Assembly: GCA_049999805.1 (NCBI GenBank)
Contig: JBNGIO010006348.1
Location: 99,554-163,553, forward strand
Reading direction: 5' to 3'
From: Folioceros fuciformis
Taxonomy: Eukaryota
DNA: 64,000 nucleotides
Made by a program: the position numbers and the translations under genes. Each line of letters opens with the position of its first letter. Within the stretch, counting starts at the first letter, position 1. This document shows, in pieces, positions 22,924 to 47,416 of this stretch. The notes under the pieces were generated by a model. The model made no database searches, had not been told where the DNA came from, and was given only the letters and a program-made list of their open reading frames with translations.

Positions 22924-23430
22924 ATTGAACTCAATGCTAGCCCAGCTAGACAGTAGCTCAAATCATTGCAAGTCTAGAGAGTAGTTTTTATTCAATTAAT
23001 CGAGACAGAGGTGAACTTTTCATTGAGTCCCCAAGACGCCCTGAAAGTCTTGTAAAACAGACTAGCTTTTTCAAACTATCACTTTCTCGTCGACTATGAA
23101 GGGGCAAGACAATGCTTACAACACACCGAACTCTAAACTGTGGCCATACCAGTGGATCTGAAGAGCAACTCCGTTTCATCACATTAAACAAATCTGGACA
23201 TAGTCCAAAGAGATGACATCCCTCATACACCTCAGACGTTTGAAAGTGTAGAATGTAACGCCTGTCCAAGTCGCACAATAATATGAAAATTGATTCCATG
23301 TGTACACCTTGACACATGAATGGCATAATCAGAAAACCTGACTACCTATTCAATGATTAACAAATGAGGCAAATGATAGGCTTCCGCTTCTGATACAGCA
23401 TACTCAGGCCTCTAATTAGTGGATACAAGT

Positions 23431-25988
23431 CTACAGCTGAGGACTTCCCCTGCCACAAGTCAGGGACACTCTCTTTCCTTCGAGCCGAAATTGCGAACTC
23501 CGCTCGATCTGAATGCACAGCAGCACCAAGGCCATGGCACAGTATGAGCGTTTGAGATCGGAAGCAGCCAGCAGAATGTGAAAGGCAGTGCACACTACCT
23601 TGTTCCTTAATTCGGAGTCAGGAGGTAGACCAGTTGCTTCAGTAACACGCTTTTGCAGCCTCTTCAAGCTCATAGTCTGTTCAGGGGCCTGTGCACATGG
23701 CGAACGCCAGTCTGAGTTTGCCATCTCACAAATGAATAAGATGCAGAAAGACACTGTAGCTCCAAAGACATGTACCTCTTTCAAAATTCTCTTGCATACT
23801 TTTTTCCACTTCAACGGTTTTCCGGCTGTTTCAGAAACCACAACGTCATTCATTTCATCATGTTTCCTCTTTCCTGTTGATGCCGTTGCCTCTTTCACAT
23901 CCTGGTCCTCACTGCCCCTTCCAGCATCCACCTCAACCTCATCGTTAAATGTAGTCTTCTTTCCCTTAAACCGAGCTCCTCCAACTTTGAGGGTACGGTC
24001 CCCAATACCAAGTCCTCGCTTGCCAGTCGTGGCCTTGTCCTGCGATGTAGGATTTCTTAGAGCCAATTCCCACAACCTGGACAACTACAAGAAAGGCAAG
24101 TCCACCAACCAAAGATAATGTCACAGCGCATCGTCTCTTTACAAGGAATGCAAATAATCCACCTGCACAAGCTTGTACAGGTTCTCTTGGTCCTGCTCGC
24201 GGAAAGATGTTCTTTCACTGCCATTCTCCCCTGCTCTTGTCTGAGGCCGCTCAGATCCAAGTTCACCAGCCCGTACAAAGCCGAATTTGTTTCCCCACCA
24301 ATCTTGTGGAAGTGGTACCACCGTCACGGGAGCACTGGCTACTTCTGCTTCGGCCTTCACCACCTCCATGAACCCAATCCTGTCCATCTTTTCCTGCTTC
24401 ACTGAAGCTTGGGGCAAAGTACCGAAATTCTGCTGCCTGGGGAGTTCCTGTTTCACAAGCCTATCAACTACCGCGAGGACTTGTTTCACAGGTTTCAGGT
24501 CCAATTCTTCTTTAACCGGTTTCAGGTCCAATTCTTCTTTGACAGGTTTCAGGTCCAATTCTTCTTTGACAGGTCTCAGGTCCAATTCTTCTTTGACTGG
24601 TTTCAACCCCATTGTTGCTTCGTTTTCAACAGATTGTCTGGACTTGATTTCCCTCCTGATGAGTGCTGCCCAATGAAATCCACGACCAAGTGTCAAGTTC
24701 CAAGGTCAGCGCAAACCTCTTGCTGCTAGATGTCTAGATCTCCACTACTTTGACGAAAATGGATTTTATAAAAGCTCCATCTTCAACGATGCCAAACAGA
24801 TAGTCCTACATGCATATCTAACTTCTACTAGCAAGCATACTTCAAAGAACATAGATAGAACTACAAGGTGCACCAGCCAGCACAGGGGTGCATCCAGACC
24901 ACTCTGCAAGCAGAAACAGCTGCCACCGAGTTCATCTTCACACAAAAGATCCTTACTCTGCCGAGGTTTCTCGCTTTGAACAGCAGATATCCCCTACACA
25001 AATCATCAACTGAAAACATTAATTGACAGCAGTAAGTGTAAGATGTGACACAAACACGATTGCATACTCACCAGTATAGCTTGTAAATCTTTTGCAGGGT
25101 AGGATTTGACATCTTTACACGCTTCCCTCCTCTTGTACCTAAAGAACCTTGGTTATCTAAAATCACAGTATGATCACCACACTAACTGTTGGCTACTCCA
25201 CACGGGAGCGTAGGTCAGCAAAACCAACCTGCCCTGGGGCCGAGTTAACTTTTTCTCCCCCACTGTCGGTGCATTGGCCTCACTGATCTCTTCCAGGCCA
25301 CCTGCCTGATCTGACCGAATAGTTTGTACAGACAGTACAGAGTATGAAAACTAGGAACCTTTCAGCCCCAGCAACGCTGGAAATTCCTATCTGCCGCACA
25401 AAAACCAGGTGCTAGTCTCCAAACGAAAATTCAGAACTTACCTTCATTTGAGTCCGAAGAAGCCACTTGCTGCCACAATAAAAAAATAATACATACATAC
25501 GAGCGATCAGAACGCAATGGAACACATTCAGCTGATCAGCAATGTCCTTCAACCCAAAACAGCCACTTGTACCACTTTCAAGTTCTTCAGAAGGTTATCA
25601 AAATTGATGATGCTCAAGGACCAGTCCTTGCTAGCTTCCAACCCCAGGCCTGTAAACAGAAACAGAGCTTGGACATGTCATCCCAACGCGACCGCAAACC
25701 CACTAACCGAAAACACACTGATATTATAAGAGTTGCATATGCACCGGAGCAGTCATTCTTCTTCTTCACCCTCAGATGCTCCTTAATGCCCTGTCCGTCT
25801 TTCCCTAATCCTGTCCCTTCCTGCCAACCCTGCACAGCCACAGTAGCAAAGGGATCGGTACACGGAATACCACACATCTAGCCCCATCCTCGACGCAATC
25901 CGTTGACTCCAAGTACCATTTGCTGCATTAATTTGAAGGCCTTGGAGGCCTTCGGTAGTCCTTGGTACATCACCGGGCCCTCCCTCAT
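23431..25988 (-). CDS. G-patch domain nucleolar protein (plant GDP1 / GPATCH4-like)
   Basis: G-patch KAFKLMQQM/GWQEGTGLGKDGQGIKEHLRV; also RPQGRYKRRE, DWWGNKFGF, QDQENLYKLVQ, DKATTGKRGLG and a C-terminal KWKKVCKRILK. Multi-exon. Confidence 0.9.
24484..24606 (-). repeat. 27-bp coding tandem repeat (L-K/R-PVKEELD) x about 4.5
   Basis: ggtttcaggtccaattcttctttgaca-type unit repeated; translates as LKPVKEELDLRPVKEELDLKPVKEELDLKPVKEELDLKPVKQ. Confidence 0.95.
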
Positions 25989-26338
25989 CTTCTCGCCAGC
26001 TCCGGCAGCACAGTCGAGCTTCCAAATCGAATTCTAGCGTTTGCAGCAGCTCATCAAGGCCTACCTCGCCTCACCAAGGGCAAAATGCCCACCACCGTGA
26101 CGACTTTCCTAGCCGCCGGATTATTCCCATGGCCTCCGAGTTTTCTTCGCTACATATATGTAGCCGTTTCAGTCTAGGGGGTTGAAATGTTTTGCACCCT
26201 AGTTTAGCTAAATACGTACAGCACGTATGTACATGTTCCGGAATTGGAACGTGTTAAGAAAACGCTTGTGAGCCCTCGATCGACCCGAAGCCCTAAGTTG
26301 CGAGCGAACGATCCGGTTTGGGTAGCGATCTCTAACGA

Positions 26339-26761
26339 ATGTCTGTGGAGATGGCGATCAGGAGCCAACGGCAGCCGAGCTTGGCGCCCGCCTCCAAGGC
26401 ATGTTTTGGTCGGGGCCAGGATGCGAACAAGGCGACAGTGGCAAGAATCACGCGATGTGAGGCAGCTGAGTATGTGGCAAAATACGTACAGATACGGAAG
26501 CTTTGTGCACAGCGACTTCGGGTGAAATACTTCTCTGAGCAGACTCCCGAGGATCAGCGGTACTATGAAAGTGAGGTGCAAATCGGAGACGTTTTAGTGA
26601 AGGAAAGCAGCGAGGAGCCTTTGGAGGAATTCACTAGAGCACGGGGGCCGTTGGAGGAGGAGGAGGAGATGCAGATGAATTCCTCGCGCATGAGGTCGGC
26701 GCCTGACCTGGAAATGCCTCGCTCCATGAACAGGCTGAAGAGTCAGGCTCGGAAGAAGTAA
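26339..26761 (+). CDS. Small hypothetical protein, divergent from the G-patch gene
   Basis: Intronless 140-aa ORF with an ATG start. The YVQIR..L..KYFS...EVQI....KES segment looks like a remembered uncharacterised plant family, unverified. Confidence 0.6.
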   Translation: MSVEMAIRSQRQPSLAPASKACFGRGQDANKATVARITRCEAAEYVAKYVQIRKLCAQRLRVKYFSEQTPEDQRYYESEVQIGDVLVKESSEEPLEEFTRARGPLEEEEEMQMNSSRMRSAPDLEMPRSMNRLKSQARKK

Positions 26762-27551
26762 GCCTCATCTACCTCATGGATCCATGTGAGGTTCGATTCT
26801 TGGCTCAAGAATTCCGCTGGGATGGGCTGGCCTGGTGCTTGGCGCTCACATCTTGTGTTCCTTCTAAGCCAACAGAAGGATTCTATGAGACAATATGCTG
26901 GTTTCTATGAGGGATTGATTGGGTAAAGCAAGTTGTACTGCAAGACTATCGCGTGGGAGTACTGGCAGGAAGCCGGGGCGACCAGCGTACTGTCTGGCTG
27001 GAGAGGGTGACCGTTCGAGGCGGACAACGTTAAGCGTTAATGCAGTGTTTCGGTGAGACGAGGATCTGTAAGTACTTCGCCCTGACCGCGGAACGGGGAG
27101 GGGCTCGGGGTTGTGTTACGAAGTGGCCGAGTCAGGATTCAGTAAACTGTGTCCAAGCTCACCTCCATCTAAGATAGTAAAGCAGGTTTTCCAAAGCAGC
27201 CAATATTTCTCATATGGCCGACTAGCTGCTGGCTGAACCTAGCCGACGACTACTGCATCGCACGCGGCGCATTGCATTTGGTATTCACCCTGATGGAGGT
27301 AGGTACTTGTGCACATTGTCCCTCAAGGCGTCTTTTGTGCACAGTCCTTGCGCTCGCGTCCCCAAGTATCACTAAATATCTTTTTTAATATCTTTAACCT
27401 CAAAAAGGTTGAAAGGGGAGGTCGTTGGAGCCTTCAAGGGTCCCGGACTTCTTGCCGTGCAAAGAATTGTAGTAGGATTTGCTTGCTTTCTGAGACCGTG
27501 CATTCTGGGACCGTGATTCCATTCCTTGGTTTGATTGGTTCCGTGGTTGAG

Positions 27552-29046
27552 ATGTCAGTGGAGGAAGTGAGTAAATTGTGGAGCCTGGGCATCGGGGTGG
27601 TTGACGATTCCCACGTCTGGAGCCGCATGCCAGTCCACATTTTGGAGCGTGAGATCATGCGATGTCTGCCCGCCTCGTACCCCGTGGTGATCAAGCTGTC
27701 CCAGGTGTGCAAGCGATGGCGGTTGCTGCTGCACCAGGAGTACTATTCCAGAATCCTTAGCTTCTCGTCGGTGGCAGACACAGCAGGGCAGGGCTGGTTC
27801 TTGCAGCTGTTTGTGGTGGGGCAGACGACGCAACTGTTCGCCGCCCTTCATCACCCCAAGCTGGACGTGTGGCAGCAGCTGCCCATGGATCGGAGCTTGA
27901 GCGACTCGCTCCTGATGGTGAGGCTGGATTTCGTGAAGGCCGACAAGGGCCTGCTGCTGTTGAAGAAGTCATTCGTGGATTCCGGGGACCGCGGCAAGGT
28001 GCAGGAGGAAGAGTGGGTGGTGATCAAGGGTCCCCGCTGCCTGGACAACCTTCAGGTCCTGGATAAGGTACCGACCCCGGGTGGATATCCTAGTAGGGTA
28101 CCGGACATGGGCTGGAACATCAGCGAGGCCAACATTTTCTTCACGGTGTCCAGGGACGACACGGTCGCGAGGTACAAGATCATCATCCTAGCCGTGGACA
28201 AGGATGTGAACTGGTTCGTGTCCCAGGTGTACGATTCCACAATGAAGGCCTGGCAGGTGGTGAAGATGGCTCGCCTGGATGAGCGCACCTCTCAGAGTTC
28301 CCTCATGTGGAGCCTCTTTTGTGGTGTCTGCTGCCACGGGGTGCTCTACCTTCTCATCTTCCCACCGGACTCGTATGACCGGTACTATGTGGTGGCCTAC
28401 GATATTCACAACAAGAGTGAGTGAGTGAGCTCAATGCAGTTAGGCAGCAGTGTGTGTTCTCAGTTCATGGGTTGAACCTGCCGTTCTTGGTCAGCAGGTG
28501 TAGTGGACATTCCGGTGCCCACAGACGAGATGCCTCTGCAAAATGGGACGTTGCGGATGTCTTTCTGCCATCTTGTGGAGTGCGGGGGCCGGATTCTGCT
28601 GTTGCTTGATTACATCAATGGCTCCAACGATCCGTTCGAGCGATGGCACGATGCTGAGGGGATCGGGATCTGGGAACTGGCCACGGACCTGGTATCAGGT
28701 AAGTAAACCGATTGCCCACCAGCACGCATTCTCTGGAGTATCGATTCCTCCCCTGACATGAGCTTGCACGGTTTTCACAGGAGCCAGGGATCACTGGGTG
28801 AAGCATGACTCTGTCACTAGAGAGCAGATCAAGGCAATGGAATGCCACCGTGAATTTCTGCGGGATGCCACCTTTCTTGGGGTGGGTGGCCACGTCTATG
28901 TGTATTGCTGGAATCATACCATCAACCAAACTAGATCTATTCTTGTTTACCATGTCGGAAACAAGACGTGGAAGTGGCTGTCCCGCCTTCCAAACCTGGG
29001 CTTCCAGTCCCAGATTTCCTTCTGTCACAGTGCAGTTCACCTCTGA
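27552..29046 (+). CDS. F-box protein with a beta-rich C-terminal domain
   Basis: F-box WSRMPVHILEREIMRCLP...LSQVCKRWRLLL, then YKII, VYDS..KAW, GV.CHGVLY, LVECGGRILL. Exons about 27552-28416, 28498-28698, 28781-29046. Confidence 0.85.
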
Positions 29047-29691
29047 ACTCACGAAGGGCCAGCCCATTGATCAGTGTTCACCGACTGGGTGCACAATCTT
29101 CTCAGCCGGAGATGAAACCGCAGGCTTCGAATGCAAATGCACCCCAAAATGTGATGGAGGGCTCAGAAAGGGCTGGAAGTCTCCTTCTTACATCTAAGTT
29201 TTTCACTATTCTATCCGTCTCCCCCACCATTGGGTGGGTGTTTGTTCCGTGGGTTTTTCATATTTGAAAGCTATGGTGGAAAGTGGCCGCCACGGGCACG
29301 CGGACTGCGAGGCAAATTTTGACTGACTGGCCAACGTTCGTACAAGATTCGCCGAATCGGGTCTCGTACTCTAGTTTTGCATCAACCTCGGCAAATCCAC
29401 CATTAGTTAGTCCATCTCTGTCCAACCTCAGTCGATTACAATAGACTTCTTTTATTGAGATAAATTGTCTTTGAAGCAGTAGATTCCGGTTCAACTCCTA
29501 CTCCCCATATGTGGGTTTATAGCATATGCCTATGACGTCAGTGCATTATAATCAATTTTTTTTACTAAGTTAATAGCCTTTCAAGCAATAGATTAGATTT
29601 CAAGCATAGTGACTACAATAGCACCTAAAATATTATGGTATGGAAGGAGAAAGGGTTTACCTTACCATTGGAGTTGTTGAGGCAGCCTCTC

Positions 29692-29855
29692 CTACCAATG
29701 TTTGACGTCTTATGTATAGCATTAGCCAATGCCTACCAACATTCGTCGTCCTATATATAGCATTATCCAACACCTACCAACGTTCGTCGTCCTATATATC
29801 GCATTATCCAATGCCTACCAACGTTCGTCATCCTATATATTGCATTAGCCAACCC
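29692..29855. repeat. 41-bp tandem repeat x4
   Basis: Unit ctaccaacgttcgtcgtcctatatatagcattatccaatgc with a few substitutions per copy and no spacers. Confidence 0.9.
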
Positions 29856-30189
29856 TCGTTGTAGAGCAATGGAAACCCTCTATCAAAAGAATGCTACAAT
29901 ATACTCCCAATCTGCAACTTACATTGCTTGCTTACAAATTTCAACTTTCCTACACAACAAAGGCTGAATGAAACCAACTGGGCTTGTTTAGAAAACTACA
30001 AGTCCCATGGCTTATGTAATAAAAGTAAGGCTTGTATACAAGTATGTATTTTGATAAATATTAAAGAATGAAAGATTATTTAAAGTATTTATAACTACAA
30101 ATATAAATAACATCTTTCCAATCATCTTGTTGAACCACTCCTCAGGACGAGGTATGGAATCCATGAATAATATTTATTTATCAATACCT

Positions 30190-30633
30190 TCATCTTCCAA
30201 AAAATCCAAAAATTGAAAACCGCAAATAACAATCCTTCGAACTATAATAAGCTTCTGCACTAAACTGACATTCACGTTGAATCAAGTCGCTCAATTGCCT
30301 AATACATTCCTTGCATTCGGCTGCAGAAGTCATAGACTGCAGGTTCGGATTGCACTGAGTATAACCCCAAAACGTTTCTGGAGGCGGCACCACATTAAGA
30401 AAGGTAGATTGTGGTGCTGGATACTGATTACTTGCACCGTCCACCAAGTTGTTCAAAGCAAGCTTGACATAAGGAGCTCTAGGATCAAGTAGCTTAAACT
30501 TTGTGCCACACCAGTGAGCAACATGGGTAGTATTTGGTACTGCTCCCGCATTAATTATCATCAAACAAACAACACTAGACCAAATCAACACATCTTTGCA
30601 AACTCTCATTCTCCTTTTGTCAATCTCACTCAT
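30190..30633 (-). CDS. Secreted single-domain Gnk2/DUF26 (stress-antifungal) cysteine-rich protein
   Basis: Hydrophobic signal segment, then WGYTQC...CKEC...C...CYLRFS, the typical DUF26 Cys pattern. Intronless. Confidence 0.85.
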   Translation of the reverse strand: MSEIDKRRMRVCKDVLIWSSVVCLMIINAGAVPNTTHVAHWCGTKFKLLDPRAPYVKLALNNLVDGASNQYPAPQSTFLNVVPPPETFWGYTQCNPNLQSMTSAAECKECIRQLSDLIQRECQFSAEAYYSSKDCYLRFSIFGFFGR

Positions 30634-31459
30634 ATTGAGAGACCCAACTTTCTTAATCTGAAATCAAATCATCTTACACATGCACAATAAAAAGCGGTTT
30701 CCAGTGCTGAGCTAAAAATCTTCAAGCAACTGCAACTTATTATAGTATCCAGCACGAGACCCAAAGCATAGCTTGGGTTGGAAGTTATTCTGTGAGTATA
30801 ACATGAACAAGACTCCTTATTCTTTGTGTAATATATTTGCACATTAATTGATTCTTATTCACCATGTACTCAAGAAGGATCTACTTTGAGCAAAAAAATA
30901 GCAAGCTCAACCCACAAAGTTGACGATGTCTAAAATACAGCTTTCATAAGGAACTGTAGAGACCATGAGTTGACTAGCATGCTTCCTAGCTATCCTTGGA
31001 TATGTGGCATGTAGAATAGACAAAATCTAATTTACATATATTTTTATATAAGATATATGATATTATCTTTAATTTTAATTAAAATATTTCTAGTTGAATA
31101 AGAAATACCTTGGTAGTTAAAAATTTAGTCTTACTTACCAAGTCATTATGGATTTCTACTTATTAAAAATATATTAAAATAGAATAATTATCATTTAACC
31201 GTAAGCTAAAACCAATATAAAAACCGTCATGTCATGCGATGAACATGATTTCAAAATGCATGCCATGAGGATGAAAATAAGATAGAAGACTTGAAGAATT
31301 TTTACTTCTCATCATTGCAAATTTCATCATCCAATTTGTAAAATGTTCTTCACGTGGAAGTTTTTCACCATGCAAAAAGTGATCTTAAATATAATGAGAA
31401 ATAGATTTTTTCATAAGCAATAAAAATACAAGAGGAAATGAAGACTTGAACATAATTAA

Positions 31460-31630
31460 TCTACTTGAAGAAGGATGAACTATAATTTGACAAGAATTGC
31501 TCTTATTTGAAGAAGGATGAACTATAATTTAACAAGATTAGCTCCTACTTGAAGAAGGATGAACTACAATTCACATTAAGTTGTGGCTGCTTAAAGAATC
31601 ATGAACTAAAATCTGAACAAAATAGCTCTT
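31460..31630. repeat. Degenerate 42-bp tandem repeat x about 4
   Basis: Core t(a/t)cttgaagaaggatgaacta(t/c)aatt recurs at 42-bp spacing. Confidence 0.8.
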
Positions 31631-31865
31631 ATATCTAGTACGTTAATGAGAATTTAAAGTTATGGTTCTCTTAGAAAGTTGCAAGCTACTTAAAACTATA
31701 TCAAATCAACATATGCTAAATGTGAAGATATTTGTACTAAAGTCTTTTTTTCTTTCTTTCTTCAAAAATATTCCCATTTGTTTTAATGGATGGAAACTTT
31801 TCATGAAGACATAGACTATTTTGGAGATTATTAATAGTTTTTTTGTTAATATTGGATTAGGGAAG

Positions 31866-34800
31866 ATGAAATCCTACGGAAATAGTTCGCTTGACTTCAA
31901 ACATGCTGGATTATCATCTATCGGAGAACCTGTAGCAGACACCACTGATAATACCGATACTGACATAAGTGAAAGCCTTTCTGACCAGAGCTTGAGGTGA
32001 TTGTTATACTTAATGCAATTCGGTAAACAAGATGGGCTAGCTTCTCAGCCAAATGGAATACCTGACATATCTATCCATGTGCAATTGCAGACTTGAAAAG
32101 AATGTTGGAGAGGAGTTTCATGATGGTGTACATTGTCGATGCTTCTCATCTTCTGGAACAAATAGCATTTTGGTGACACTTAGAGGTCACAAACATGCAT
32201 GAGTTCTGACATTGATACAAAGGTTAATAGTTAGGTATGAAATCCAACGACTAATTAATGTTGTTGATTAAACAATATAGGATCGGACCTTGTCACCACC
32301 ATAAGAGACCATTTGTTTCACATTTTGGACCAAAACCCAAGTTATTCATCCTTTGATTACACTCTCAAACTGGTACACCTTACCCTACTTCTGCCAATCT
32401 TTACAATCAAGAATTGTATGGAGATATGAGAAGGAGTTCTCTATTGTTGTAGGGTGGAGTTGCATTATATTTGGACACTCGGTTGGGCACTAGGAAAATC
32501 TTGTCTGATTATAAGTAAGGTAGCTAGCGATCTATTCCAAATTCATGGGTTTCTGGGTTCCTAATCAAAGTTTTATGAAAAGTACTATACATTGTGGCAA
32601 GCTTGAATGGTCAATGCACACTTGTCTTACAAACTTCTCTCCAGTTGCAGCTTTAAAGGACCTGAACATTGTCTGATCTAGGTATATCCAAAGATGTATC
32701 ACAGAGAAGAAAACTATTGTTCTTAGGTTGCTTGCAAATAACACCAAAGTTGTTGCTCAATCCAAAAGAATAGAGCCCCCTTATCAAAAGAAAGTGAGTG
32801 CCATGTCTCCAAAACCAACAAAGTGTATCTAATCCATGTACTTGTTTATCCCTACAATGCTTAGTAAACAGCATGGTGTGATTTTCTAAACCTAATTCAC
32901 ATCTATCAATGATGACAGGATGTAGCTTCACATGTGGTTAACAAAATTCCTCAGGTAGCTAAGTCAGCTCCTAGCTTAAATGATATAGAATCTTGTAGTC
33001 CTTCAGTTGAGTAATTATTTCCTTGTGTGTGTGTTGTGTGTTTCTCAGAGTTATTCAACACATTTTCGTAGACTATATTTGCATGTAACCATAAACCAGT
33101 GTAGCATAAGACATGAGTATTTTTCCAACATCAATGAAGATCCTTTTTATTTCAATGTTGTTGTTACATTGTATCCTTCACATTTAGTTGAACTCTTGTC
33201 TTGGGATTAGTCTATGTTTGAACATAATGATGTCTTAGAAGTTTTGTTAACCAATCTAGACTTCATGGTGCTGAGCATTTATGCCCGTATTACTCCCAAG
33301 CAACGTCCTTTATCTTGGGTTGCGAGAACTTATGTTGGTGTGAATTGCTCACATTTCCAATACTTCTCTTTGATATACCACAGGTTCTCATTTGACAGTA
33401 TGATATGTTTAGTGAATTTCCTGGAGATGTGATAACATTCTAGCTCATGAGCAAATCATCTTCTTGCTTAACATATTTTGTGATGGAAATCCTAGGTGGT
33501 GGGGTTGAATTTTGCTCTTTATTCGGGCCAGGTGAAAGGTGGTGATAGGGTTGATGCTACTCTTTTTGGTTGGGCCAATTTTCACTTCCTAGATGAGTCT
33601 GGAGTTATAGAGGATAGAAGAAAGTTTATGAGATTGTGGAACACAAAGCCAATATTTTCTCCCGGTAAGACTCTTATGTTTCAAGCTGTTACGTGTCCTG
33701 TTTTGTGGACATTGAGGTTGGAATACTAACATTGGGTTAATGCTAGACACCTAATAATTCTATGATGCAGGCACTGTGATGGAGAATACTTCTGAGTACT
33801 TTTCAGGCATCTTGGATGTTGAACTTGATCAAGTGTTTGATCACTCCATATTGAATAAAATGAGAAGAAGAGTGATTCAGGAGATGGAGGACTTTGATCC
33901 AAGTATATGATTTTTTTTTGTTGTTGAATATGGGATTTGATGAAACTGAGCAAAGAGTGTTTGAGTAAGTGTTTGTTGATATGATAGGTTCCACGGATGA
34001 ATTTGTTCCATCTAGGAAGGAGATGGCCAAAATAGAGAAGCTGCTGAAGAATTATGGTAGATATGATTTAATTGATATGACTTTGTGCAACGAGGTCTGA
34101 GACATTTTCTTCTGAACCTTGACCTGGATTTTCGGATGTCCAGATCCTGTGCACACTAAGATCACAGACGAACATAAGCATCTGTTATGGAGATATCGAA
34201 CTGCTATAAAAGTGATGGCTGATGCTTTGCCTCTATTTCTACAGTCAGTCCGGTGGGACAAAAACTCTCAAGTCGCAGAGGTTCACAGGCATGTCGATTT
34301 GAATGCGTCTAGCCTCACAAGTTCATGCTTGAGAACCTCACGTATGTATGGATTGTGGTTGTCCTCGCCTATAAAAATTCCAATGTTGTGATTTTATTGC
34401 ACCAATCCTCAAAAGGATCATGCAGGCTATTACCTGGTTGGGAGCGCATGCATCCCTTTCAGGCTTTGCAGGTACTGTTGGTGCTCTGTTTCAAGTTCTC
34501 TTTTCATCGAGGTCGTCGAAAGATACGCTTCTTCAAACAATTATTTGACGTGAGCAGCTCTTGCATCCGCGGGTTGGAGATGTCTTCGTTAGAGACTATG
34601 GTGTGCAGCTCTTGGACTCACTCTCTGATGAGGAGGTGCTGTTAATTTTGCTGCAGCTGGTTCAGGTATTGTAGGCTGTTCCTTCGATTACTGGTACTTG
34701 ATCATTTCAGAATAGCAAGCTGTGGCAGAGTATTAACTTCTGAACCATCCTGTGCAGGCATTGCAGTACGAGCCCTTTCAAATGTCGGGACTGTTAAGCT

Positions 34801-37188
34801 TCCTCCTTCGAAGAGCGAGTGCAAGTTGGCGGATAGCCAACCAGCTCTTTTGGATGTTGAAGTTGAGTTCCCAGACCAGCCCGAGGAATTACTTACTAGT
34901 AGCACAGAATAACTTCTCTTCTTGCACGTTTTCTTGTTGGTCACGGGGTTGCTAACGAACTCTGCACACCTGCAGGCTCGTGTGCAAGACCCTTGCTTCC
35001 ACACGAAATATCAAGTCTCACTGAAAGAGGCCATCAAAAGTTGGAACGTTCATTTCCAATCAGAGCTGGTAAAGCAGGAATCCTTGGTTGTAAGCCTGGC
35101 GGATATTGCCTTCTCATTGCAGACTGTAGAGCAAAGCAAAAAGCATCAGGGGCTGAGGAGCTCACTGAAGGCTCTTGACTTCACTCCAGTTTCATTACCT
35201 TTGGATCCGAGGTGAAAATCGGACCCAGCCGGGTGGGGTAGATGGAGTGTGAACTTTGTGTCATCATGATGCATGTCATCCAACTTTGTGTCCTCACGAG
35301 GCAGGTTTAGGATGATCGGGTTTGTGTTGGAAAGTTGCTACTGCTCGGATTCGGCAGACAACTCCTCTCTTTGGCTGGCGTTTCGAAGGGCTGACCAAAG
35401 GAAGCCTAAGCCCCATGCTCATACATCACAGCTCCCCAAAGACTCGGAAAGTAGCGCAGCAGGAGGTCTTATTGTAGTTATCTTTAAGATCGGTAAAGAT
35501 CTACGCCCGGACATGGTGGGACTGCAGATGCTTTCCGTTATGGAGAAGGTGATGTTTGTTTCCGTGATGCTTGTCATGCCCTTGGTTCTGCTGTCCTACA
35601 TGTTTGTTGCCGTCATTCATGCCGTTCCCTTGGTTCTGTCAAACTCGTTCTCTGTAACATACAAAACGAAGCATCGAGTGGGACGCAATTGCAGATCTGG
35701 AGAAGGGTCGGCATGGACATGAAGATGACAATCTATAAGTGCATGGCGAATGGACCAAATTTTGGCATGGTAGAAATTGTGCAGGATGCAGAATCTTTGA
35801 CATCCATCACCGAGGTGAGTGAGTGAGTGAGTGAGCGACTGTTATTATGCCTCAGACGGGAAGGGAAATTGGCAGCAATTTCGTCCACAGCTCGTTTGGT
35901 TGGTTAGGTTAGGATGAGTTATACTGATCCGAAGGGTGTCTGGCTGTTCATGCGTTGTGCTTATGGCTGCACAAAATGCCAGGGTACAGGAACAGCGGGT
36001 GCATTGTCCGATTGGCTGTTGGCATACAACAGCACAGGTATCATTAGACTCTGTACCCTGGGATACGACGTCATGATGCAATCAGAAAATGCAAGACACT
36101 GTGCTGACCAGCGCTCAAACCCATGGTGTGTCAATAAGAGCTTCAGGCAACAGATATGATGAAGCCGTTAGCAGTCTGATATATTCGTGCGCAGCGTACT
36201 GTGTTGCAACCTGCATTCTTGGTGTTGGAAACAGGAGTGCCGATACAGTTATGGTCAGAAGAACGGGAGAATTTTTCCGTATCCCACAAAGTTTTCCCCT
36301 TTTCTCTCGGGGGGTTTGAGGACTGTAGTGCTTGCTGTACAGGAAAGCCGGTGTGAATGACCTTCGTTCGCTGTACATTAGGTAGTGGGAGTCTGGCCCC
36401 GTCCCTTCGTCGCAGGTGACTAGTACTGGATGTGTGAGCTTGCAATTGGAGCCTTGAACATGCCACGTTTCAGACATTGATTTCAGGCAAATACTGGCCG
36501 AGTTCAGGACGAAACGAAAGCGAGGACAAAGTCGTTTTCTGGTGAGTTGCCTCAGAATGTCCAACAACATCTTTTATCCTTTTGTGCCGAGAATCAGCAA
36601 GCAACAGTTGGCGTCTTATGGGTCCTGACTTGTCTCCCATACATCTGGCCCACTGTGTATTTCCCATGTGCTCCTAAGCATACACATAACTCGTGGGCTT
36701 GTGCAACAGTTCACTCAGCATCTTGCATTTGTGATGGGCGGGGTCTCCGACAAGCGGTTCAAGCTGTTCGAGTACGTGTGCATAGAAGCCTACAACAGAG
36801 TCCGCAACGAGGCCCCATTGCTGCTCAATCTACTTGCATTGGTAACCACCGGCAGGCTCATGAAGTGCAACTGTAGCCCTAGGCCAGGAGTCAGGCTGCT
36901 ACTTGATAATTAACACACACCAGTACCAGCGCATCCAATAGGGCTGCCAGATAATCTACAGGTCCTGAAATATGAGGTTTGTTTCCATGTTCGGCCATGC
37001 AGATGGTGTCCAGTGGCGTTGCCGAACTGTCCAACCCCAAAGACGTGAACCACGTGAGGCAGACTCTCCAGCTTGACAAGAGTGACGTCGACGCTGGACA
37101 CAAGTTCAGGAAGTGGATACACACCAGCCTCAAGCAAGGAGCCACATTCCTCTCCAGGTGTCGTGGATGTGCATCACAAGTGAGCTAA
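31866..37188 (+). CDS. Class I/II-type phosphoinositide 3-kinase homologue (RBD-C2-helical-kinase), probable pseudokinase
   Basis: Hand-spliced, phase-compatible exons give an RBD-like DYTLKLGGVALYL..LSDYKYIQRCI (32281-32793); C2 LLHGAEHLC..WCELLTFPILLFDIPQVVGLNFALY..FGWANFHFLD..MRLW; helical DPVHTKITDEHKHLLWRYR..LPLFLQSVRW..LLQLVQALQYE..FLLRRA..IANQLFWMLK; kinase IFKIGKDLRPDM..KIW..GMVEIV..SCAAYCVAT..GVGNRSADT..HIDFR..MVSSGVAELS. The start codon is tentative. Confidence 0.88.
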
Positions 37189-40100
37189 CACAACACCACC
37201 TTTGCGGATGAACTCTCTTTCACACCCACATGCTGACAAGGCCCTGTGTGTGCAAAGGACGGAGACATCCATCTCTGCCACCCTAGCCACTCGGTAGCAC
37301 CGGAGCTTTGTAGGTGAACCACATACCAAATTCTGGGAGAGCCTCTGTTATGTAGTCCGTGAGTGATAGTTTTGATGAGTCAGTGCTCCTTTCTACCACA
37401 CTGCCACTACCCTGACATCTGGACCTCGTCTAACATTGGCTAAACTCGGCCTTGGAAGAGGCCTACCCTGATTAATCCAAACTCCAAACACGACAACACA
37501 AGAATCTACACTTGGGCTCGCATCCTGGTGTGGGCTAATAGCAGAAGTGGCAGCTCAGGATGCGTCGCCCACATCCCTTACTTTCCTTGCAGCAGGAGCA
37601 TCCTCCAAAAGATACTCCATGGGAATTTACAAAACTGGAGGAATCTCGGCCCGTTCGTTGATCGTAAGTGTGGTTGACTTACTTTCCCTTTCAATACATG
37701 CCGTTCCTTTTTGTTGACAAATTCTCACCTGTTCTCGTCCGACCGACAGCTCGGTTACTGATTCCTTCGAATTCCTGCTCAGTCAACCCCATACGGTTCA
37801 CTCACCCTCCGAGTTGGAGGTGCAGGAAATATTTAATAATACTTTTTCGTTTTTGTTTTTGTTTTTTATTTTTAAATAATATTTTTTTCTGCTTTCTGCT
37901 ACCACTCAAGCCAGCAAGTAGTATGATCCAAAGATTAACAGGGTCCACATTTTTCCCGTTTCCAAGGTCTCCCTCCTCGTGTTGTGCAAGTTGTGAGATG
38001 GAGCAGAATTTAGAGCAAGCTTGCCCTCTAGGAAACCCACCTCCACTTTTNNNNNNNNNNCACTTTTGGGCGTCCCTTTCTTTGGAAGGAAAGGGAAGCT
38101 GTCTCCTGCAATGCACCGGCATCCATCATCAAACAAAACATTCCACAGCAGCACCAAAAGTTGTGAAAGGTGCCAGTGGTGTGAGATATCATCCTCCGTA
38201 GCACACTCCAAGGCTTTATGACCAATCAAGCCATTAATTTATTGATTAAAGTACCTGATTATAAAGGCAATTCGGTTACGCACAGGAGGAGGAGTACAGT
38301 GCTGGTACTGGTGAGTGATACACGGTGGGGTGGGGTCCCTGCGTGTTGTGGGGTAGGAAATAAAATAATTAGGTAGGAAAAGGAAAAGAGGAAAAAAGAA
38401 AAGTGTGTGTGGCAGTGATGCGGATACCGGAGTTGTTTGTTTGTCGTGAGGCGATTTTATTTAAGGAGGACGATGAGGTGATGTCTGGTTGGTGAGAAAA
38501 TGGGTCCGGGTTTGTTTGATTCTGGCCTTACGGTTGCCTGGAGTTATTTTTCATGCGGGAGGGTGAATTCCGGAGTTACCAAAGGGAGGGTAAAGCGGGG
38601 CCTCGTGCCGGACGTGAGGACGACACGCGCTGTGAGCCTCGCTGCCATCGCCCCCGGGTCCTGGCTTGGCGTCCGAGACACCTGGGCAAACACTGTCTGT
38701 CCCAGGACAGCGGCCTGGGCAGAGGGAAAGGAAGGAAGCGAGGCGAGGCGTCTCGTCTTGGACCGGCTCGGACCGGCCCGTTGTGCGATTCACAGGGGCG
38801 GAGGCCTGGGAGGGCGAATCTGTGAGCGTGGCCGGCCCTTCTTCTTCATGACGCGCGTTGTAGGCCATTAGGTACTGCAGCGCAGATCAGGCCACGGCAG
38901 GAGCGGCACGGACTGGCACTGGCACTGGCACTGGCACAGGCACAGGCACAGGCATATTTGGAGAGGCGCGGCCGGTTTCATGTGATGTGCTTGCTTGGCA
39001 ATGAGATGCCACGCTTTCTGTCACCGGACTCCTCCGTGCTGTACAGCGGCTGGGAGCCGCTTTCTCCGGGCGTGAAATCATCTTTTGGGGATGTGCGGCG
39101 GATGGTGTGACGCTGCGCTGCTTCTTGTCCCTTGCTGTGTCTGGGGAGGTGGTTTTCTTGCCAGCCGGAGCCGGGGTTGAGGCCGGGGCTGGGGCTGGGG
39201 CTGGGGCCAAGGTTGCTGCTTCTCTTTCTATATACTCGTGCTTCGCGCATTGGAGGGAGCACTTCGCAACTGCTGCTCTCGCCTCGGGCTGGGCTATTTC
39301 AAGAGTCATTCACACAGGCGCTGCCCCACTCCAGTCGCACCCACCTGCTGCCTAGCCTGCTTTTGCGAAATCGGCCGGGGCCGCTGCTAACCCCACGTGC
39401 TTTTGTGTGTGCGCACCGCCTGGGCGGACTGCATTGGATCGGAGACTGTGCCGTGCTCTCTCTCGGCCTTGGCTGGCTTTGTTTCAAGCTCCAGGGTCTG
39501 TAGCCGAGGTATTTGAAGGCGGCTCCGTGTGGTTGTGCACCCTCGTCCAAGCTCTCGTGTGCGCCCCGCGCTGCTGCAACGGCTGTTTCTGTTGCTGTTA
39601 CTGCTGCTGCTGCTGCTGCTGCGGTGGAGGAGCAGGAGGAGGAGGATTCCAGAGCAAGTGGAAGAGCAAATCTGGCATCAATCAGTGATGTCCTCCTCCT
39701 GTCTTTCCAGTCAAGGCTGCCCTACGGTGTACCACGGATTGGGCTCTTGCAATTGGAAGTGCTGTTGATCTGCTGCCGCTTCCTTACGACACGGGCCTTC
39801 ATGCCTGCCGTGCCGTGTGAGCTTCAGCTTTTGCCCAACAAAAGTACTTGAATAGCGGGAAGAAAGAAGGATACCGAGCTTAATTGCTTACCGAATCTAT
39901 GAGCTCTCTCTCTTTTGTCACAACTCCAATGGCATTCTTTCCAGACGACACCCAGTAAGAATTTCCCTACTCGCACAGTAGTTCGAATCATGAAATGCTG
40001 CCTTGAGCTTCAACTTGTTGTCTGCTTCGTGCACCCGTCACCTGCATTAGTCTTTGCGTGCTTGCAAGCAACAAGTGTGTTGTAGATGAACACACCTGTC

Positions 40101-42508: not shown

Positions 42509-44634
42509 ATGATCTTCCTCCAGTTGCCTGTGGAACATACTTGTGAAAAGAGATGGGATGAACAGCTCCCTCACCACTAGACAGCGTGCATACTCTGACA
42601 GTGTTTGTTCACTGTCGTGTGCAACGAATGGAATCATGAACTACTCCTCGAGAAAGACTTCATAGGCTACTGTACTGAATCATAGGCTACTGTACTGAAT
42701 CGGATTGGATTCAGCGACGACAGACGAAGCCAGAGCCTCCGGAGCATGTGGTCTGAGGGAAGTCGACCACAGAGACCTCGCTGGAGACTTGTCCTCGGAA
42801 ATTGGCGACCTTGCAGTCGGTGGACATGATGTTCGAAGAGAGGAAGGAGGCCTCTTGGGTGAGCATGGGCATGCTCTGCCCGGACTTCTGCTGCTGCTGC
42901 TGGAAGCCGGGAGCGTAGGTCTGGCCCAGCACTCCTGACACGGACGGCGTCAGCGCCTTGAACTGGAAGTTGAGCTCCAGGTGGGCGAAGCAGTTGTCCG
43001 GGGTGATGCCGTAGCGGTGGCGGATGTTGTCGGATCCGGTGACGGGCACGACGAGCACAGAGAGGGAGAACTGGTCCTCCACCTCGATGATGATGCCGTT
43101 GCGGCTCTCGGACCTGGTGACGGTCAGGCCCGCGTGGGGAGCGGTCCAGGCTGCGTCCTTCACCTGCGGGAGGAGGATCGGGAAGGCGTCCAGGGACATC
43201 TCCAGGTAGTCCACGGCGTTGTCGAAGGTGGCCACCTGCAGCCACGGCATTGATTCCACGCACGCGTTGAGCACTTCTGCTCGGATTCGGATGGGTTTAG
43301 CGCAACAACGGATCCCGATGCTAAGGGGTCCGGAGGCGGTAGATGTGTGGGCTCACCTTGCTGGCGCCGACGTACAGCTGGTGATCGCCAAAGAGAATCC
43401 CCAGGGACTGCACCCAGGTGAAGTCCCGCGACATGTGGTCCGCCCGGCGGCCGATGAAGTGGGCATTCACGTGCAGGTGGGAGTCGGAGACGATGCAGAA
43501 GTCGGCGTCCTTGTGGCCGTGGAAGTAGAAGGGCTTGCCGTCGCTGCCTACGAAGACGGGGTCGTCCTTGATGCAGCCTGGGTAGTAGCCCTGGCTGCAC
43601 GGCCTCGGCTTCCACCCAGAAGCTGCAACCAAGTACGAGTAGTATGAGGACTAGTACCAGAACAATTGCCATTGCAACAGTCTAGAGCTTCATCGAGAGG
43701 TGACCTTGCTAGCTAGCTGTAAACATCCCGCTGCTGCACGGAGCAAAACCCATCTCACAGAATCTCTTCCTTACCGTCCACATTGCTGGCCACGGACAGA
43801 ACCAACACCGCCACAATCACAGCTGCCACCTGCACCGATGCCATGCTCCCGAGGGTGGAGCTTGCTTACAACTCTCCAACCGCCTGCTGAAGAAACAGCC
43901 GCTGTGGAAGAAGAAGAGAGTCTGCCTGTAAGGCCGAGCAGGCCGCTCTTTATACTCTCTTCGAGTGTGCGTTGAAATCGACTTCCAGATCGGGCACGTG
44001 CCTCGCTTGCAAGCCATGCAGCGGGGCGGGGCCATCTTCTACTGTCATTTGGTTAACTGGCCAGGCCTCGGGTTGTTTCCGCACTAAAGATACATACCGC
44101 GGCAGCCTCGCTCAGTCGCAGCCTGTCCATGTTCGGGCGCCAATTTCTTTCGTACGTTCTGGGAAACTCCATGGCAAGCATTCTCCGATTCGCCTCTCAT
44201 CAATCATGATTTAAAACACATTTAAGCCCGAGAATGCGGTGCCAGGCCTGTGAATGCGTGCGCCAACTGCACAAGCCTGCCCGCCCTTGTTTAAAGACAG
44301 GTGTTTCGGCCAACCATGGCCTTCCGTCCGTCTTCCAAGTGCATTATTACACGACCTGGCCCAGGCTGGCCTGTGTTGCACCAATCTCCTGGCCCACCAT
44401 CCCGCACTTCAGGGAGTATGTTGACCGGGCTCCTACTTGGTGCATTGCAATATTTGGGCATTTCAGCGATGATTTGTTTGAGATTCTCCGGGAAGTCCTC
44501 GTTGCCATTGGTGCAAAATGCAGTCCACATGGGAAACGTTGCAACCGCATATGCGCCATGCCATTTCATGGCCTGTTTGCATCTCTTGGCTTGATGGCAA
44601 TGTATATTTCAAGCGTGGGACAGACACTCTTCTC
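42509..44634. repeat. Left arm of a ~2.1-kb inverted duplication (right arm about 50089-52236)
   Basis: Reverse-complement match across 3' flank, exons, introns and about 0.8 kb of upstream sequence. Start and stop coordinates are symmetric (43844+50908 = 42711+52041). Confidence 0.92.
42711..43844 (-). CDS. Root_cap-domain secreted protein, copy 2
   Basis: Same 3-exon structure as copy 1; signal peptide MASVQVAAVIVAVLVLSVASNVD; ends FVCRR. Confidence 0.93.
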
Positions 44635-44635
44635 A

Positions 44636-47416
44636 TGAGTTATCCTCCTTAGGCCAGCCTGTATCCTGTGGAAGACAGACAACTGTGTCAAGGATTTCAG
44701 ATTTGGTAGCAATTTTCCGAATGTAGTACCGATGTTCATAACGAAAGCTTGAGCGGTGTAAAGTGGGCCAGTCCTCGAAACGATTTACACCATATTTACC
44801 AGAAGGTACAATTTTCGTCTGCAGCACTGGCCTCCTATCTATTACCACTGAAGATTTCAGGATGAGGCTACTCGTACCCTTTGTCCCAATGAACCGCAAG
44901 AGTGGACATGTCCTTTCCTATCAAATATCCTCAAGGATACTTGATGGCATGGGCAGATTTCATCTTGTGGAGATAGTCGCCTATTTCAAGCTTGAGGAAG
45001 AAGGTAACTGTCTCAAGTATTGAAGGTCAGAATGTGAAGCATTGTGGTACAACCATACCTCCAGGCTGTGCAGTATTATTTTGTGCACTCCCCTGAAATG
45101 AATTCAGATGCATCACACCAAACAAGGGATCTCTTGTATGGAATTCAGCGACGGCAGACAAGGCCAGAACCGCTCCCATGATTCGCAATCTCATAGTCTG
45201 CTCGCTTTTGAGCTGGATTGCATCACACTGAACTAGGGATCTATTAAACTGAATTCAGCGACGGCAGACGAGGCCAGAACCACCGGAGCATGTTGTCTGA
45301 GGGAAATCGACGATGGTGACGTCGCTGGTGACGTGGCCTCGGAAATTGGCGACCTTGCAGTCGGTGGACATGAGGGAGGACGAGAGGAAGGAAGCCTCTT
45401 GGGTAAGAACGGGCATGGTTTGCCCGGCCTCCTTCTCCTGGTGCTTGAAGCCGGGAGCGTAGGTCTGACCCAAGACTCCAGTCACGGACGGCGTGAGCGC
45501 CTTGAACTGGAAGTTGAGCTCCAGATGGGCGAAGCAGTTGTCGGGGGTGATGCCGTAGCGGTGGCGGATGTTGTCGGATTCGGTGACGGGCACGACGAGC
45601 ACGGAGAGGGAGAATTGATCCTCCACCTCGATGATGACGCCGTTATGGTTCTGGGACCTGGTCACGGTCAGGCCAGCGTGGGGCGCGCTCCAAGCGGCCT
45701 CCTTCACGGTTGGCAGGAGGATCGGGTTGGCGTCCAGGGACATCACCAGGTAGTCCACGGAATTGTCGAAAGTGGCCACCTGCAGCCACGACATCCATCG
45801 ACGCACGCATTGGTCTCTGCTTCTTCTTCTACTGTAGAATGTGGTGTGCATGGACTCACCTTGCTGGCGCCGATGTACAATTGGTGGTCGCCGAAGAGAA
45901 TTCCCAGGGACTGCACCCAGGTGAAGTCGCGGGACATGTGATCCGCCCGGCGTCCGATGAAGTGGGCGTTCACGTGCAGGTTGGAATCGGAGACGATGCA
46001 GAAGTCGGCGTCCTTGTGGCCGTGGAAGTAGAACTGCTGACCGTCGCTGCCCACGAAGACGGGGTCGTCCTTGATACAGCCCGGATAGTAGCCCTGGCTG
46101 CAAGGCCTCGGCTTCCACTGGTTAGCTGAAACAAAGTACGATCAGGATCAGAATGATTGCCAATCCCCACAGCCCATCAGTATGCAGACATCTGAATTCC
46201 TGCTCCCGCGCATCACAAACGTCCATCTGACGCAATCCACTATTACCATCCACATTGCTGGCCACGGACAGCACTAACACCGCCACTACCACAGCTGCCG
46301 ACATCGCCATGGTATCTGAAGAGTAGCTTGCTTGAAAGTTTCGAAGCTGATTGCGCTGATTGACTGTCTTCCTTGTCCGAGTCGCCCCTCTTTATACTCA
46401 CAGCCCACGCACGCTAGGACAAACTGATCTGCCGACCGCGGACGTGGCTCGCTTCCTTTCCAGAAGACTGGGCCCTAGAGAATCATGTGGTACTGTTTCC
46501 GGCCGGAGTTGAATCCAGCATTGTTGGCCAAACATGGCCTCGTCAGAGCACGATATCAAGGCGGCCAGGTCCAGTAGAGACCTGCACATGCATACTCGCA
46601 ACCAGTTGACCTCGTCGTTCCCACTCCTGATACGTCGTAGCCTGGCCTGACAGGGTGACGGCAGGTTTCCGGATGGGCTGGCTCTAACAAAATTCAAACG
46701 CTGGGAATCATGCAGTGTCAGGCCTCCGGATGCTCGCGCCAACTTGGAGGAGTCCTCCCCACCCGGCTATGTTTAGAAATAGGTTTATCAGAGCCAGCCC
46801 GGTAGAATGTTTCAATCTTCCCATGGAAAACATGAAAGCAACTGAGAAGCATCAGGAAATCCTCCCTGCTTAGAGACCTCTGGTGCACAGCTTCCTACTC
46901 ACGCATGTTTAGCTCAGAGACCGGTTTGGCCACCAGTCCACACAGCTGGCTGGCTGCCAGTAGAAACCAGCCAAGTTATCTTGTGTGTTTGCACACAGGT
47001 ATCAACACTGCATCACACTCCGTGGGCTCGAAACCTCACCTTGGGTCAGACCCTCTGAGTCAGCTTCCATCTTTTCAAAGCCCAGCAGAAGTCCGCCGTA
47101 TGCGTCTCTCGGGACAAGACTACCCACCGGACCTTCCATGGTCAGAAGAGTTCCACCCATAAACACTCTGATCTGCGAGTGATGTACTCTGAGTAGGTGT
47201 CCGTCCAAAACTCAAGGACCACACAAAATGGTCGTGCAACGCCACTGCATCACTGCCCTCTGTCCACCTCTTGGGAAACACGAAGGATTGCTTCCTGAAT
47301 CTCAATTGAGATCTGCAAGCCCTAAAGGACACCCGGTGCCTTCTCTCACTTTGTCCGTTGGGGTTTGTGGCTTTTTGTAAGTGGCTGCTGAGAGGCAAGT
47401 CACCAGCGCGCACCAC
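44636..47416 (-). pseudogene. Decayed duplicate of the RNF32-like gene, split in two (about 46800-47416 and 44636-44875)
   Basis: 47120-47416 contains AVALHDHFV (intact gene AVALQDHFV). 46810-46950 matches the RING1 exon but lacks the CPIC segment. 44640-44875 matches the IQ exon and its upstream intron at about 53555-53710. Confidence 0.8.
45255..46310 (-). CDS. Root_cap-domain secreted protein, copy 3
   Basis: Signal peptide MAMSAAVVVAVLVLSVASNVD, same two introns, intact domain ending LVCRR. Confidence 0.93.

Follow-up and report, generated by a model that had tools for sequence, protein, structure and literature searches.

The 64,000-nucleotide stretch of Folioceros fuciformis DNA analyzed here (contig JBNGIO010006348.1, positions 99,554 to 163,553 of the forward strand; hereafter the window, numbered from its first letter) contains a class I-type PI 3-kinase (PI3K) gene, best read as a single nuclear gene that is intact, has many exons and belongs to a non-seed land plant. 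As read from the sequence, the active site of this PI3K is dismantled while its fold-defining core and its non-catalytic domains are kept. On balance, we favor the reading that the gene encodes a maintained pseudo-PI3K, that is, a protein which is probably enzymatically dead and is kept by selection, not a decaying copy. If it has become a dedicated pseudo-lipid-kinase, it would be the first pseudoenzyme known to us that arose naturally from a PI3K of classes I-III; a search of the open-access literature aimed at PI3K pseudoenzymes brought up no catalytically dead natural member of these classes.

Replacement of the active-site residues

The catalytic loop was read directly from the window. 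On the plus strand, GGT GTT GGA AAC AGG AGT GCC GAT ACA at 36221-36247 encodes GVGNRSADT, which is aligned with GIGDRHNDN of p110gamma in a phmmer search against PDB (38 bits, E 5.5e-9). The Asp of the loop is replaced by Asn (36230-36232, the codon that the original prediction had placed at 36230), the His by Ser (36236-36238) and the loop Asn by Thr (36245-36247). The exon that follows the intron end at 36473 opens with H-I-D-F-R, with the His codon split as C/AC by the intron; DFR occupies 36479-36487, the Gly of DFG is replaced by Arg, and the residue after the motif is Gln. In exon 17, IFKIGKDLRPD (35480-35512) aligns to IFKNGDDLRQD of p110delta in PDB, and GDDLRQD is replaced by GKDLRPD (35492-35512). 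The ATP-loop stretch CSDSADNSSLWL at 35342-35377 is without its lysines and has DSA in place of DSK. The sites aligned to K776, H917 and H936 of p110alpha are Ala, Ser and Gln, respectively. Several active-site residues are kept, namely the Lys of IFK (35486-35488), the Asp and Phe of DFG, the Arg of the catalytic loop and the Ser of the ATP loop. The alignment of homologues also shows that the activation loop is two amino acids shorter and still basic, and that exon 17 carries a 20-amino-acid insertion after the ATP loop.

All the motifs named by the original prediction (GVGNRSADT, DFR and GKDLRPD, together with the retained IFK Lys and DFG Asp) are present, both in the direct reading and in the alignments. 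The interval 35478..36490 to which it had assigned the loss does contain these motifs, but the altered ATP loop lies upstream of 35478, though in the same exon. What a class I PI3K carries as the DRH..N loop, DFG and the ATP-loop Lys reads NRS..T, DFR and DSA in the window, and the predicted protein combines a recognizable kinase fold with the loss of residues needed for catalysis, as a pseudokinase does. The catalytic-loop Asp is described as touching the acceptor hydroxyl, and DFG as binding Mg2+ (PMC7619004); in p110alpha, P-loop K776, catalytic-loop H917 and activation-loop H936 are reported to be essential (PMC11720314). Four residue changes require at least six nucleotide changes from the canonical codons, which makes a sequencing slip an implausible cause. 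We also considered RNA editing that would restore the loop Asp, and rejected it, as it would need an A-to-G change on a nuclear transcript. We know of no A-to-G editing of nuclear transcripts in plants.

Rarity of the substitutions among relatives

The 43-amino-acid catalytic-loop exon (exon 20) was used in an exhaustive HMMER search against 1.84 billion protein representatives. This search returned 514 matches at E up to 1e-3, the top match scoring 47.8 bits, with identity of at most 59% over 41 amino acids. Loop statistics were taken from the best 150 of the 514 matches, among which a recognizable loop was found in 146. The loop Asp and the loop Asn are each present in 146 of these 146 sequences, whereas the His occurs in 137 of them and the other 9 have Asn at that site. 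Two of the four remaining sequences likewise have DRH..N, behind GVA. The Gly of DFG is found in 48 of 50 sequences among the same best 150 and Ser in 2 of 50. The loop changes seen in the window are shared by none of the 146 recognizable loops. Among the HMMER relatives, all of them distant, none stands out for high identity to the spliced model. No match came from word-index searches of proteins with exon 17 and exon 20 (at the longer lengths only), and metagenome scans with exon 17 and the open reading frame (ORF) of exon 20 matched patterns in which no relative was confirmed.

Gene model and domain architecture

The gene model was built from tblastn alignments of 21 full-length HMMER homologues and from splice phases read off the sequence. 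It spans 31866-37185 on the plus strand and comprises 23 exons with 2775 coding bases that encode 924 amino acids without an internal stop; all 22 introns are GT-AG and range from 77 to 195 nucleotides. The earlier statement that no stop or frameshift interrupts the exons holds and can be extended to the 23 exons and 22 introns, in which we found no premature stop, frameshift or lost splice site of the kind that marks a pseudogene. The features of the locus are as follows.

31866..31996, plus strand, exon 1: candidate ATG at 31866, 17 codons past a stop; 43 amino acids, no known domain; donor GTGATT
32091..32185, plus strand, exon 2, RBD-type start: AG/GT, phase fits; weak donor GTCACA; within the match to P0003 392-495, E 2e-7
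32281..32372, plus strand, exon 3, RBD: AG/GT, phase fits; residues 77-145 align to the RBDs of P0058, P0011 and P0014
32453..32514, plus strand, exon 4, RBD: tblastn with P0003 463-478; donor GTAAGG; phase fits exon 5
32682..32793, plus strand, exon 5, RBD, YIQRC: tblastn, at least 6 homologues on Y-I/V-x-x-C; donor GTGAGT
32919..32954, plus strand, exon 6, 36-nucleotide linker: AG/GT, phase 0/0; optional (frame kept if skipped); no homology support
33049..33170, plus strand, exon 7, C2: phase fits; covered in blastp alignments between the model and homologue C2 regions
33260..33383, plus strand, exon 8, C2: PI3K_C2 E 0.029 (below cut-off) on ORF 33231-33392; tblastn with P0071 and P0069
33496..33664, plus strand, exon 9, C2: tblastn with P0141 544-594, E 0.002; donor GTAAGA
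33807..33902, plus strand, exon 10, C2-helical linker: phase fits
33988..34056, plus strand, exon 11, linker: phase fits
34144..34345, plus strand, exon 12, helical/PIK: Pfam PI3Ka E 2.8e-7, ORF 34116-34388; alternative donor 34341 and acceptor 34416 in frame
34426..34471, plus strand, exon 13, helical: tblastn with P0108 and P0011
34558..34665, plus strand, exon 14, helical: tblastn, 8 homologues
34758..34898, plus strand, exon 15, helical: Pfam PI3Ka E 7.2e-11, ORF 34737-34952
34976..35211, plus strand, exon 16, helical-kinase linker: tblastn; donor GTGAAA
35305..35548, plus strand, exon 17: ATP loop CSDSADNSSLWL at 35342-35377, IFK Lys, GKDLRPD, 20-amino-acid insertion
35695..35814, plus strand, exon 18, kinase N-lobe: Pfam PI3_PI4_kinase E 0.0025; tblastn, 18 homologues
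35983..36037, plus strand, exon 19: phase fits; in the homologue alignment
36147..36278, plus strand, exon 20, catalytic loop: Pfam PI3_PI4_kinase E 4.3e-8; PDB alignment; library statistics
36474..36541, plus strand, exon 21: H-I-D-F-R and the shortened basic activation loop
36710..36841, plus strand, exon 22, kinase C-lobe: tblastn, best P0003, E 3.8e-8
37003..37185, plus strand, exon 23, with stop TAA at 37183-37185: tblastn with P0003, E 1.4e-9
37258..37317, plus strand, possible alternative last exon: donor after 37179, acceptor before 37258, 78-nucleotide intron; from sequence reading only

The ATG at 31866 is a guess made without RNA or homology support, and the phase of exon 1 fits exon 2. 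The junction between exons 12 and 13 has two frame-preserving options. The candidate 24th exon would add a His-containing C-terminal stretch resembling the last helix of the homologues, and the contig of sequencing run X3 is unspliced there. Two other candidates were rejected. An RBD-like stretch at 32593-32724 with an in-frame TGA, which could have been a pseudogene lesion, falls in an intron of the phase-consistent model; the exon pair 32453-32514 and 32682-32793 fits the homologues better, and the stretch is thus taken as intronic. A DUF772 transposase match on 33758-33907 (E 0.0012, below the cut-off) could have pointed to a transposon; this ORF corresponds to exon 10, and the match is taken as chance.

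The spliced model has the domain order RBD-C2-helical-kinase, in which the RBD and the C2 are probable assignments. Pfam and PDB were searched with single-exon ORFs. In these searches the kinase domain (PF00454) was matched at E 4.3e-8 on ORF 36077-36316 (33.8 bits, cut-off 27.1) and at E 0.0025 on ORF 35497-35823, and the helical PIK domain (PF00613) was matched on two exon ORFs, at E 7.2e-11 (42.3 bits, cut-off 31) and E 2.8e-7. The C2 domain (PF00792) reached E 0.029 on a single-exon ORF, with 14.8 bits below the cut-off of 26.4, and no Pfam match to the RBD (PF00794) was found on single exons. The spliced model aligns across the whole kinase domain of 17 homologues and across the Pfam-defined C2 of P0003 (617-718) and P0014 (626-739). 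The RBDs that Pfam defines in P0058 (198-300), P0011 (191-268) and P0014 (447-546) are in part matched by model residues ~77-145, which also align with P0003 392-495 at E 2e-7. From C2 to the C-terminus, the spliced model aligns with P0003 at 32% over 728 amino acids (E 2e-105), and the alignments with P0014 (Pelomyxa), P0058 (Entamoeba) and P0011 run through the RBD. The nearest relatives are amoebozoan, animal and protist sequences at ~30% identity, not plant ones.

No adaptor-binding domain (PF02192) was found on plus-strand ORFs of at least 22 amino acids between 30.7 and 34.1 kb. Only ~60 amino acids precede the RBD in the model, and many protist forms, among them P0003, P0014, P0058 and P0108, are likewise without this domain. 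Nor is there a PX-C2 tail as in class II enzymes: plus-strand ORFs in 37444-40082 gave no Pfam match, and the frame ends at 37183-37185, or at ~37315-37317 with the alternative last exon. The order RBD-C2-helical-kinase, with neither an adaptor-binding domain nor a class II tail, indicates a class I-type body.

Maintenance versus decay

We compared the model protein with an alignment of 17 homologues, in which 64 columns conserved in at least 16 of the 17 were defined as near-invariant; the homologues were picked by their similarity to the kinase exon of the window, which may color the figures of identity and deviation given here. Near-invariant residues are kept at 51 of the 64 columns. In the helical domain, 2 of 16 near-invariant columns are changed, both conservatively. 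The kinase domain keeps 37 of 46 and has 9 changed, and seven of these nine losses are located in the ATP loop, GDDLRQD, the catalytic loop, DFG or the activation loop. Both of the two near-invariant C2 columns are changed. The identity to the homologues is normal in the RBD (0.194 vs 0.191 among the homologues), near-normal in the helical domain (0.308 vs 0.336) and reduced in the kinase domain (0.384 vs 0.477), with C2 at 0.183 vs 0.226. The ratio of kinase to helical identity, 1.25, is the lowest among the 18 sequences.

No RNA data set is recorded as covering the stretch. Transcription was examined with run X3, which has the same organism label and whose label as RNA is a guess. Its contigs join across CT..AC introns of the neighboring minus-strand gene, so that X3 does hold spliced sequence. 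Among the pieces listed for the PI3K gene there is one unspliced X3 contig of 302 nucleotides, 37017-37318, covering the last exon and 133 nucleotides downstream, and X3 depth on the gene is thin in two other bins. The regions 30.8-34.7 kb and 35.3-36.4 kb are without cover, which gives no information on expression.

Several observations weigh against a maintained protein. The GT-AG sites were picked to keep the frame, so that the model is biased towards looking intact and the splice choice could hide an indel. Homology gives little or no support to exons 1, 2 and 6 or to the start codon. No splice joint on the PI3K gene is found among the X3 joints listed, and the unspliced X3 contig could be carry-over of DNA. 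The fraction of near-invariant losses is similar inside the kinase domain (9/46) and outside it (4/18). Counted per sequence, the window protein is off at 12 of 63 near-invariant columns (19%), as against 0-9% for each homologue (n = 17), and it forms the longest terminal branch in the tree (1.50 vs 0.28-1.08). Overall relaxed constraint would produce the same picture of deviation and branch length. Word-index, HMMER and metagenome searches found no orthologue. Finally, the neutral simulation described below was made with substitutions only, a single switch to full neutrality and divergences of 0.01-0.15.

These observations raise the possibility of an early-stage unitary or duplicated pseudogene, in which function has been lost and the catalytic residues have drifted while lesions are still absent or masked by the choice of splice sites. 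We regard such a pseudogene as less likely than a maintained protein, though as its main rival. It could account for the highest deviation at near-invariant columns together with the longest branch, for the change of both near-invariant C2 columns and for the several weak donors (GTCACA, GTTCTC and GTAGCA), and it would fit the absence of a relative from every collection searched, the absence of a spliced transcript among the listed X3 joints, and the AT-rich block that houses the 5′ third of the gene, closely preceded by tandem repeats. A variant of this explanation is that the gene was already fast-evolving and may have died only very recently. What a pseudogene accounts for poorly is the combination of 2775 stop-free coding bases with GT-AG at 22 of 22 introns, as well as RBD and helical identities that resemble those of working homologues and the retention of 37 of 46 near-invariant kinase residues. 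In the neutral simulation on the model coding sequence, where 4.1% of point changes yield a stop, the probability that at least 4 of 8 key residues are changed while the frame remains open and the splice dinucleotides intact is at most ~5e-6 at every divergence tried; counting stops alone, it is ~3e-5 (a hand calculation from the 4.1% stop rate and 2775 nucleotides). The low joint probability makes it unlikely that the gene simply decayed once constraint had been lost in a single step. The original prediction that the gene is not a decaying pseudogene has thereby gained indirect support, from the open frame, the 22 GT-AG introns, the 51 of 64 near-invariant residues kept and the simulation, and its interpretation as a whole is only partly supported.

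Altered chemistry and assembly artefacts

Some protein “pseudokinases” have turned out to be active. By this precedent, the protein might still be an enzyme with altered chemistry, in which the IFK Lys and the DFG Asp bind ATP and Mg and allow residual or unusual phosphotransfer or a nucleotide-dependent switch. Such an enzyme would fit the active-site residues that survive, namely the Lys of IFK, Asp and Phe of the DFG motif, Arg of the catalytic loop and Ser of the ATP loop, as well as the still basic activation loop. We nevertheless consider it improbable: three catalytic-loop residues are lost together, along with the equivalents of K776, H917 and H936 that are reported as essential (PMC11720314), and the loop Asp described as contacting the acceptor hydroxyl is gone (PMC7619004).

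We give very little credence to an artefact, be it a protist contaminant joined to plant DNA, base errors, or a wrongly traced gene model that misses canonical true exons. The closest relatives are indeed protist and animal, not plant, a gap of 10 N lies 0.9 kb downstream (38051-38060), and one DNA run alone covers the stretch in full and may be the assembly's own source, which leaves the base calls without independent confirmation; but the gene lies between both N runs in gap-free sequence with Root_cap, F-box and DUF26-type ORFs, its intron sizes are within the range of a neighboring spliced gene (78-291 nucleotides), the residue changes need several nucleotide substitutions each, the catalytic-loop exon is single-copy within the window by tblastn, so that no alternative canonical exon exists there, and Selaginella moellendorffii is reported to have a class I-type PI3K with plant genes on either side (PMC4617754).

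A possible non-catalytic role

A maintained pseudo-PI3K could work as follows. The protein appears to have kept the body of a class I PI3K, comprising a GTPase-binding RBD, a presumably membrane-facing C2, a helical scaffold and the kinase fold, and to have lost the residues that would position the acceptor and the metals, with an Arg predicted to sit at the DFG hinge. Canonical phosphate transfer would then no longer be possible. Selection would maintain the protein for a task that needs no catalysis, probably that of a scaffold associated with membranes or GTPases, or of a module that binds nucleotide or phosphoinositide. The role as a scaffold or lipid/nucleotide sensor put forward in the original prediction is suggested by the retained RBD, C2 and helical domains, the IFK Lys, the DFG Asp and the basic activation loop. 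The protein may be an effector of plant Rho-type GTPases. A full-length gene, as rich in introns as its neighbors and with a specifically dismantled active site, does point to non-catalytic use. We tentatively suggest, as a possibility that is less than even, that a non-seed land-plant lineage has turned a class I-type PI3K into a pseudo-lipid-kinase, a Ras/Rho-effector-like scaffold that would use its RBD to bind a small GTPase (ROP) and its disabled kinase domain to bind membranes or nucleotide.

Genomic context

The PI3K gene lies within a gap-free stretch, 21401-38050, as do Root_cap, F-box and DUF26-type ORFs. This stretch is bounded by runs of N at 21301-21400 (100) and 38051-38060 (10), both scaffold gaps, the second of which is 0.9 kb downstream of the PI3K stop. 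The neighbors are land-plant genes, including WRKY, F-box/Kelch, BRCT, four Root_cap ORFs, a DUF26-type ORF, a VIT transporter and a PPR protein. Nothing recognizable was found on the opposite strand of the PI3K locus. The 5′ third of the gene is contained in an AT-rich block (30000-34000; GC 0.33-0.37 vs ~0.5 around), and the GC content of exons changes from 0.30-0.45 in exons 7-12 to 0.45-0.55 in exons 13-23, a compositional step within one gene. Upstream of the candidate start are tandem arrays at 31461-31628 and 29691-29852, with a 42/84-bp unit in 2-2.6 copies and a 41-bp unit in 4 copies. A DUF26/Stress-antifung ORF (30193-30663, minus strand, E 1.8e-7) is located 1.2 kb upstream of the proposed PI3K start.

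The Root_cap (PF06830) ORFs are found at 22345-22920 (plus), 42714-43352 (minus), 45258-46121 (minus) and 51400-52038 (plus). The Root_cap region at 22.0-22.9 kb is the sole part of the examined region covered by runs of two other organisms, B and C, and this cover, together with high summed depth, marks Root_cap as a conserved multi-copy family. A well-covered spliced gene is located at 23163-25916 (minus), where an X3 contig crosses at least 10 CT..AC introns of 78-291 nucleotides; its larger ORFs show no Pfam domain. At 399-3416 (minus) there is an open frame of 1006 amino acids with no Pfam match at E <=0.001, a GC skew of -0.26 and a GC content of 0.42. An intron-less gene at 56874-60500 (minus) encodes a PPR protein of the PLS type, 1209 amino acids long, which carries E and E+ motifs and resembles organelle RNA-editing factors in type. 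Its best matches are gymnosperm, lycophyte and fern proteins with identity of at most 48%, and there is no close Selaginella match among the best 120. These matches point to a land plant that lacks a close annotated relative.

Comparison with known systems

Class I PI3Ks (p110 type), and especially the protist forms with RBD-C2-helical-kinase, have the domain order and content assigned to the window gene and likewise end shortly after the kinase domain. The catalytic-loop exon scores highest in PDB against p110gamma, followed by p110beta and p110delta (38-37 bits), ahead of class II C2alpha (32.7) and p110alpha (31.7). The whole window model is 28-32% identical with PI3Ks of Pelomyxa, Entamoeba and other protists. 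In contrast to class I PI3Ks, the window gene has the loop Asp, His and Asn, the DFG Gly and the ATP-loop Lys replaced, no adaptor-binding domain detected, a 20-amino-acid insertion after the ATP loop, a 2-amino-acid deletion in the activation loop, and a land plant as its host. Active p110beta, p110gamma and PI3K-C2alpha have kinase-independent scaffold roles, which indicates that a PI3K body can work without catalysis. These three proteins keep the full catalytic motifs, whereas the window gene has lost them.

On phylogenomic grounds, plants have been given a class III PI3K only (PMC3024228). The exception is Selaginella moellendorffii, for which a single class I-type PI3K has been described between plant genes, its origin by retention or by transfer being left open (Philippon et al. 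2015, PMC4617754). Going by this description, that land-plant gene, like the one in the window, encodes a catalytic subunit of class I/II type. No class I PI3K in land plants beyond Selaginella turned up in the open-access literature. The window thus holds a second land-plant class I-type gene, which shows that class I-type PI3Ks survive in at least one further plant genome, and the locus bears on whether plant class I-type genes were inherited or acquired. It also offers a concrete test case for whether a Ras/ROP-PI3K-type effector module exists in plants, and for how a lipid kinase becomes a pseudoenzyme. A precedent within the PI3K superfamily is TRRAP/Tra1, described as having a PI3K-fold kinase domain that has lost catalysis and a scaffold role (PMC7619004). 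TRRAP/Tra1 differs in that it is a giant, universally conserved relative of the PIKK-type protein kinases (PMC7619004), not of the lipid-kinase type with RBD and C2 that is found in the window.

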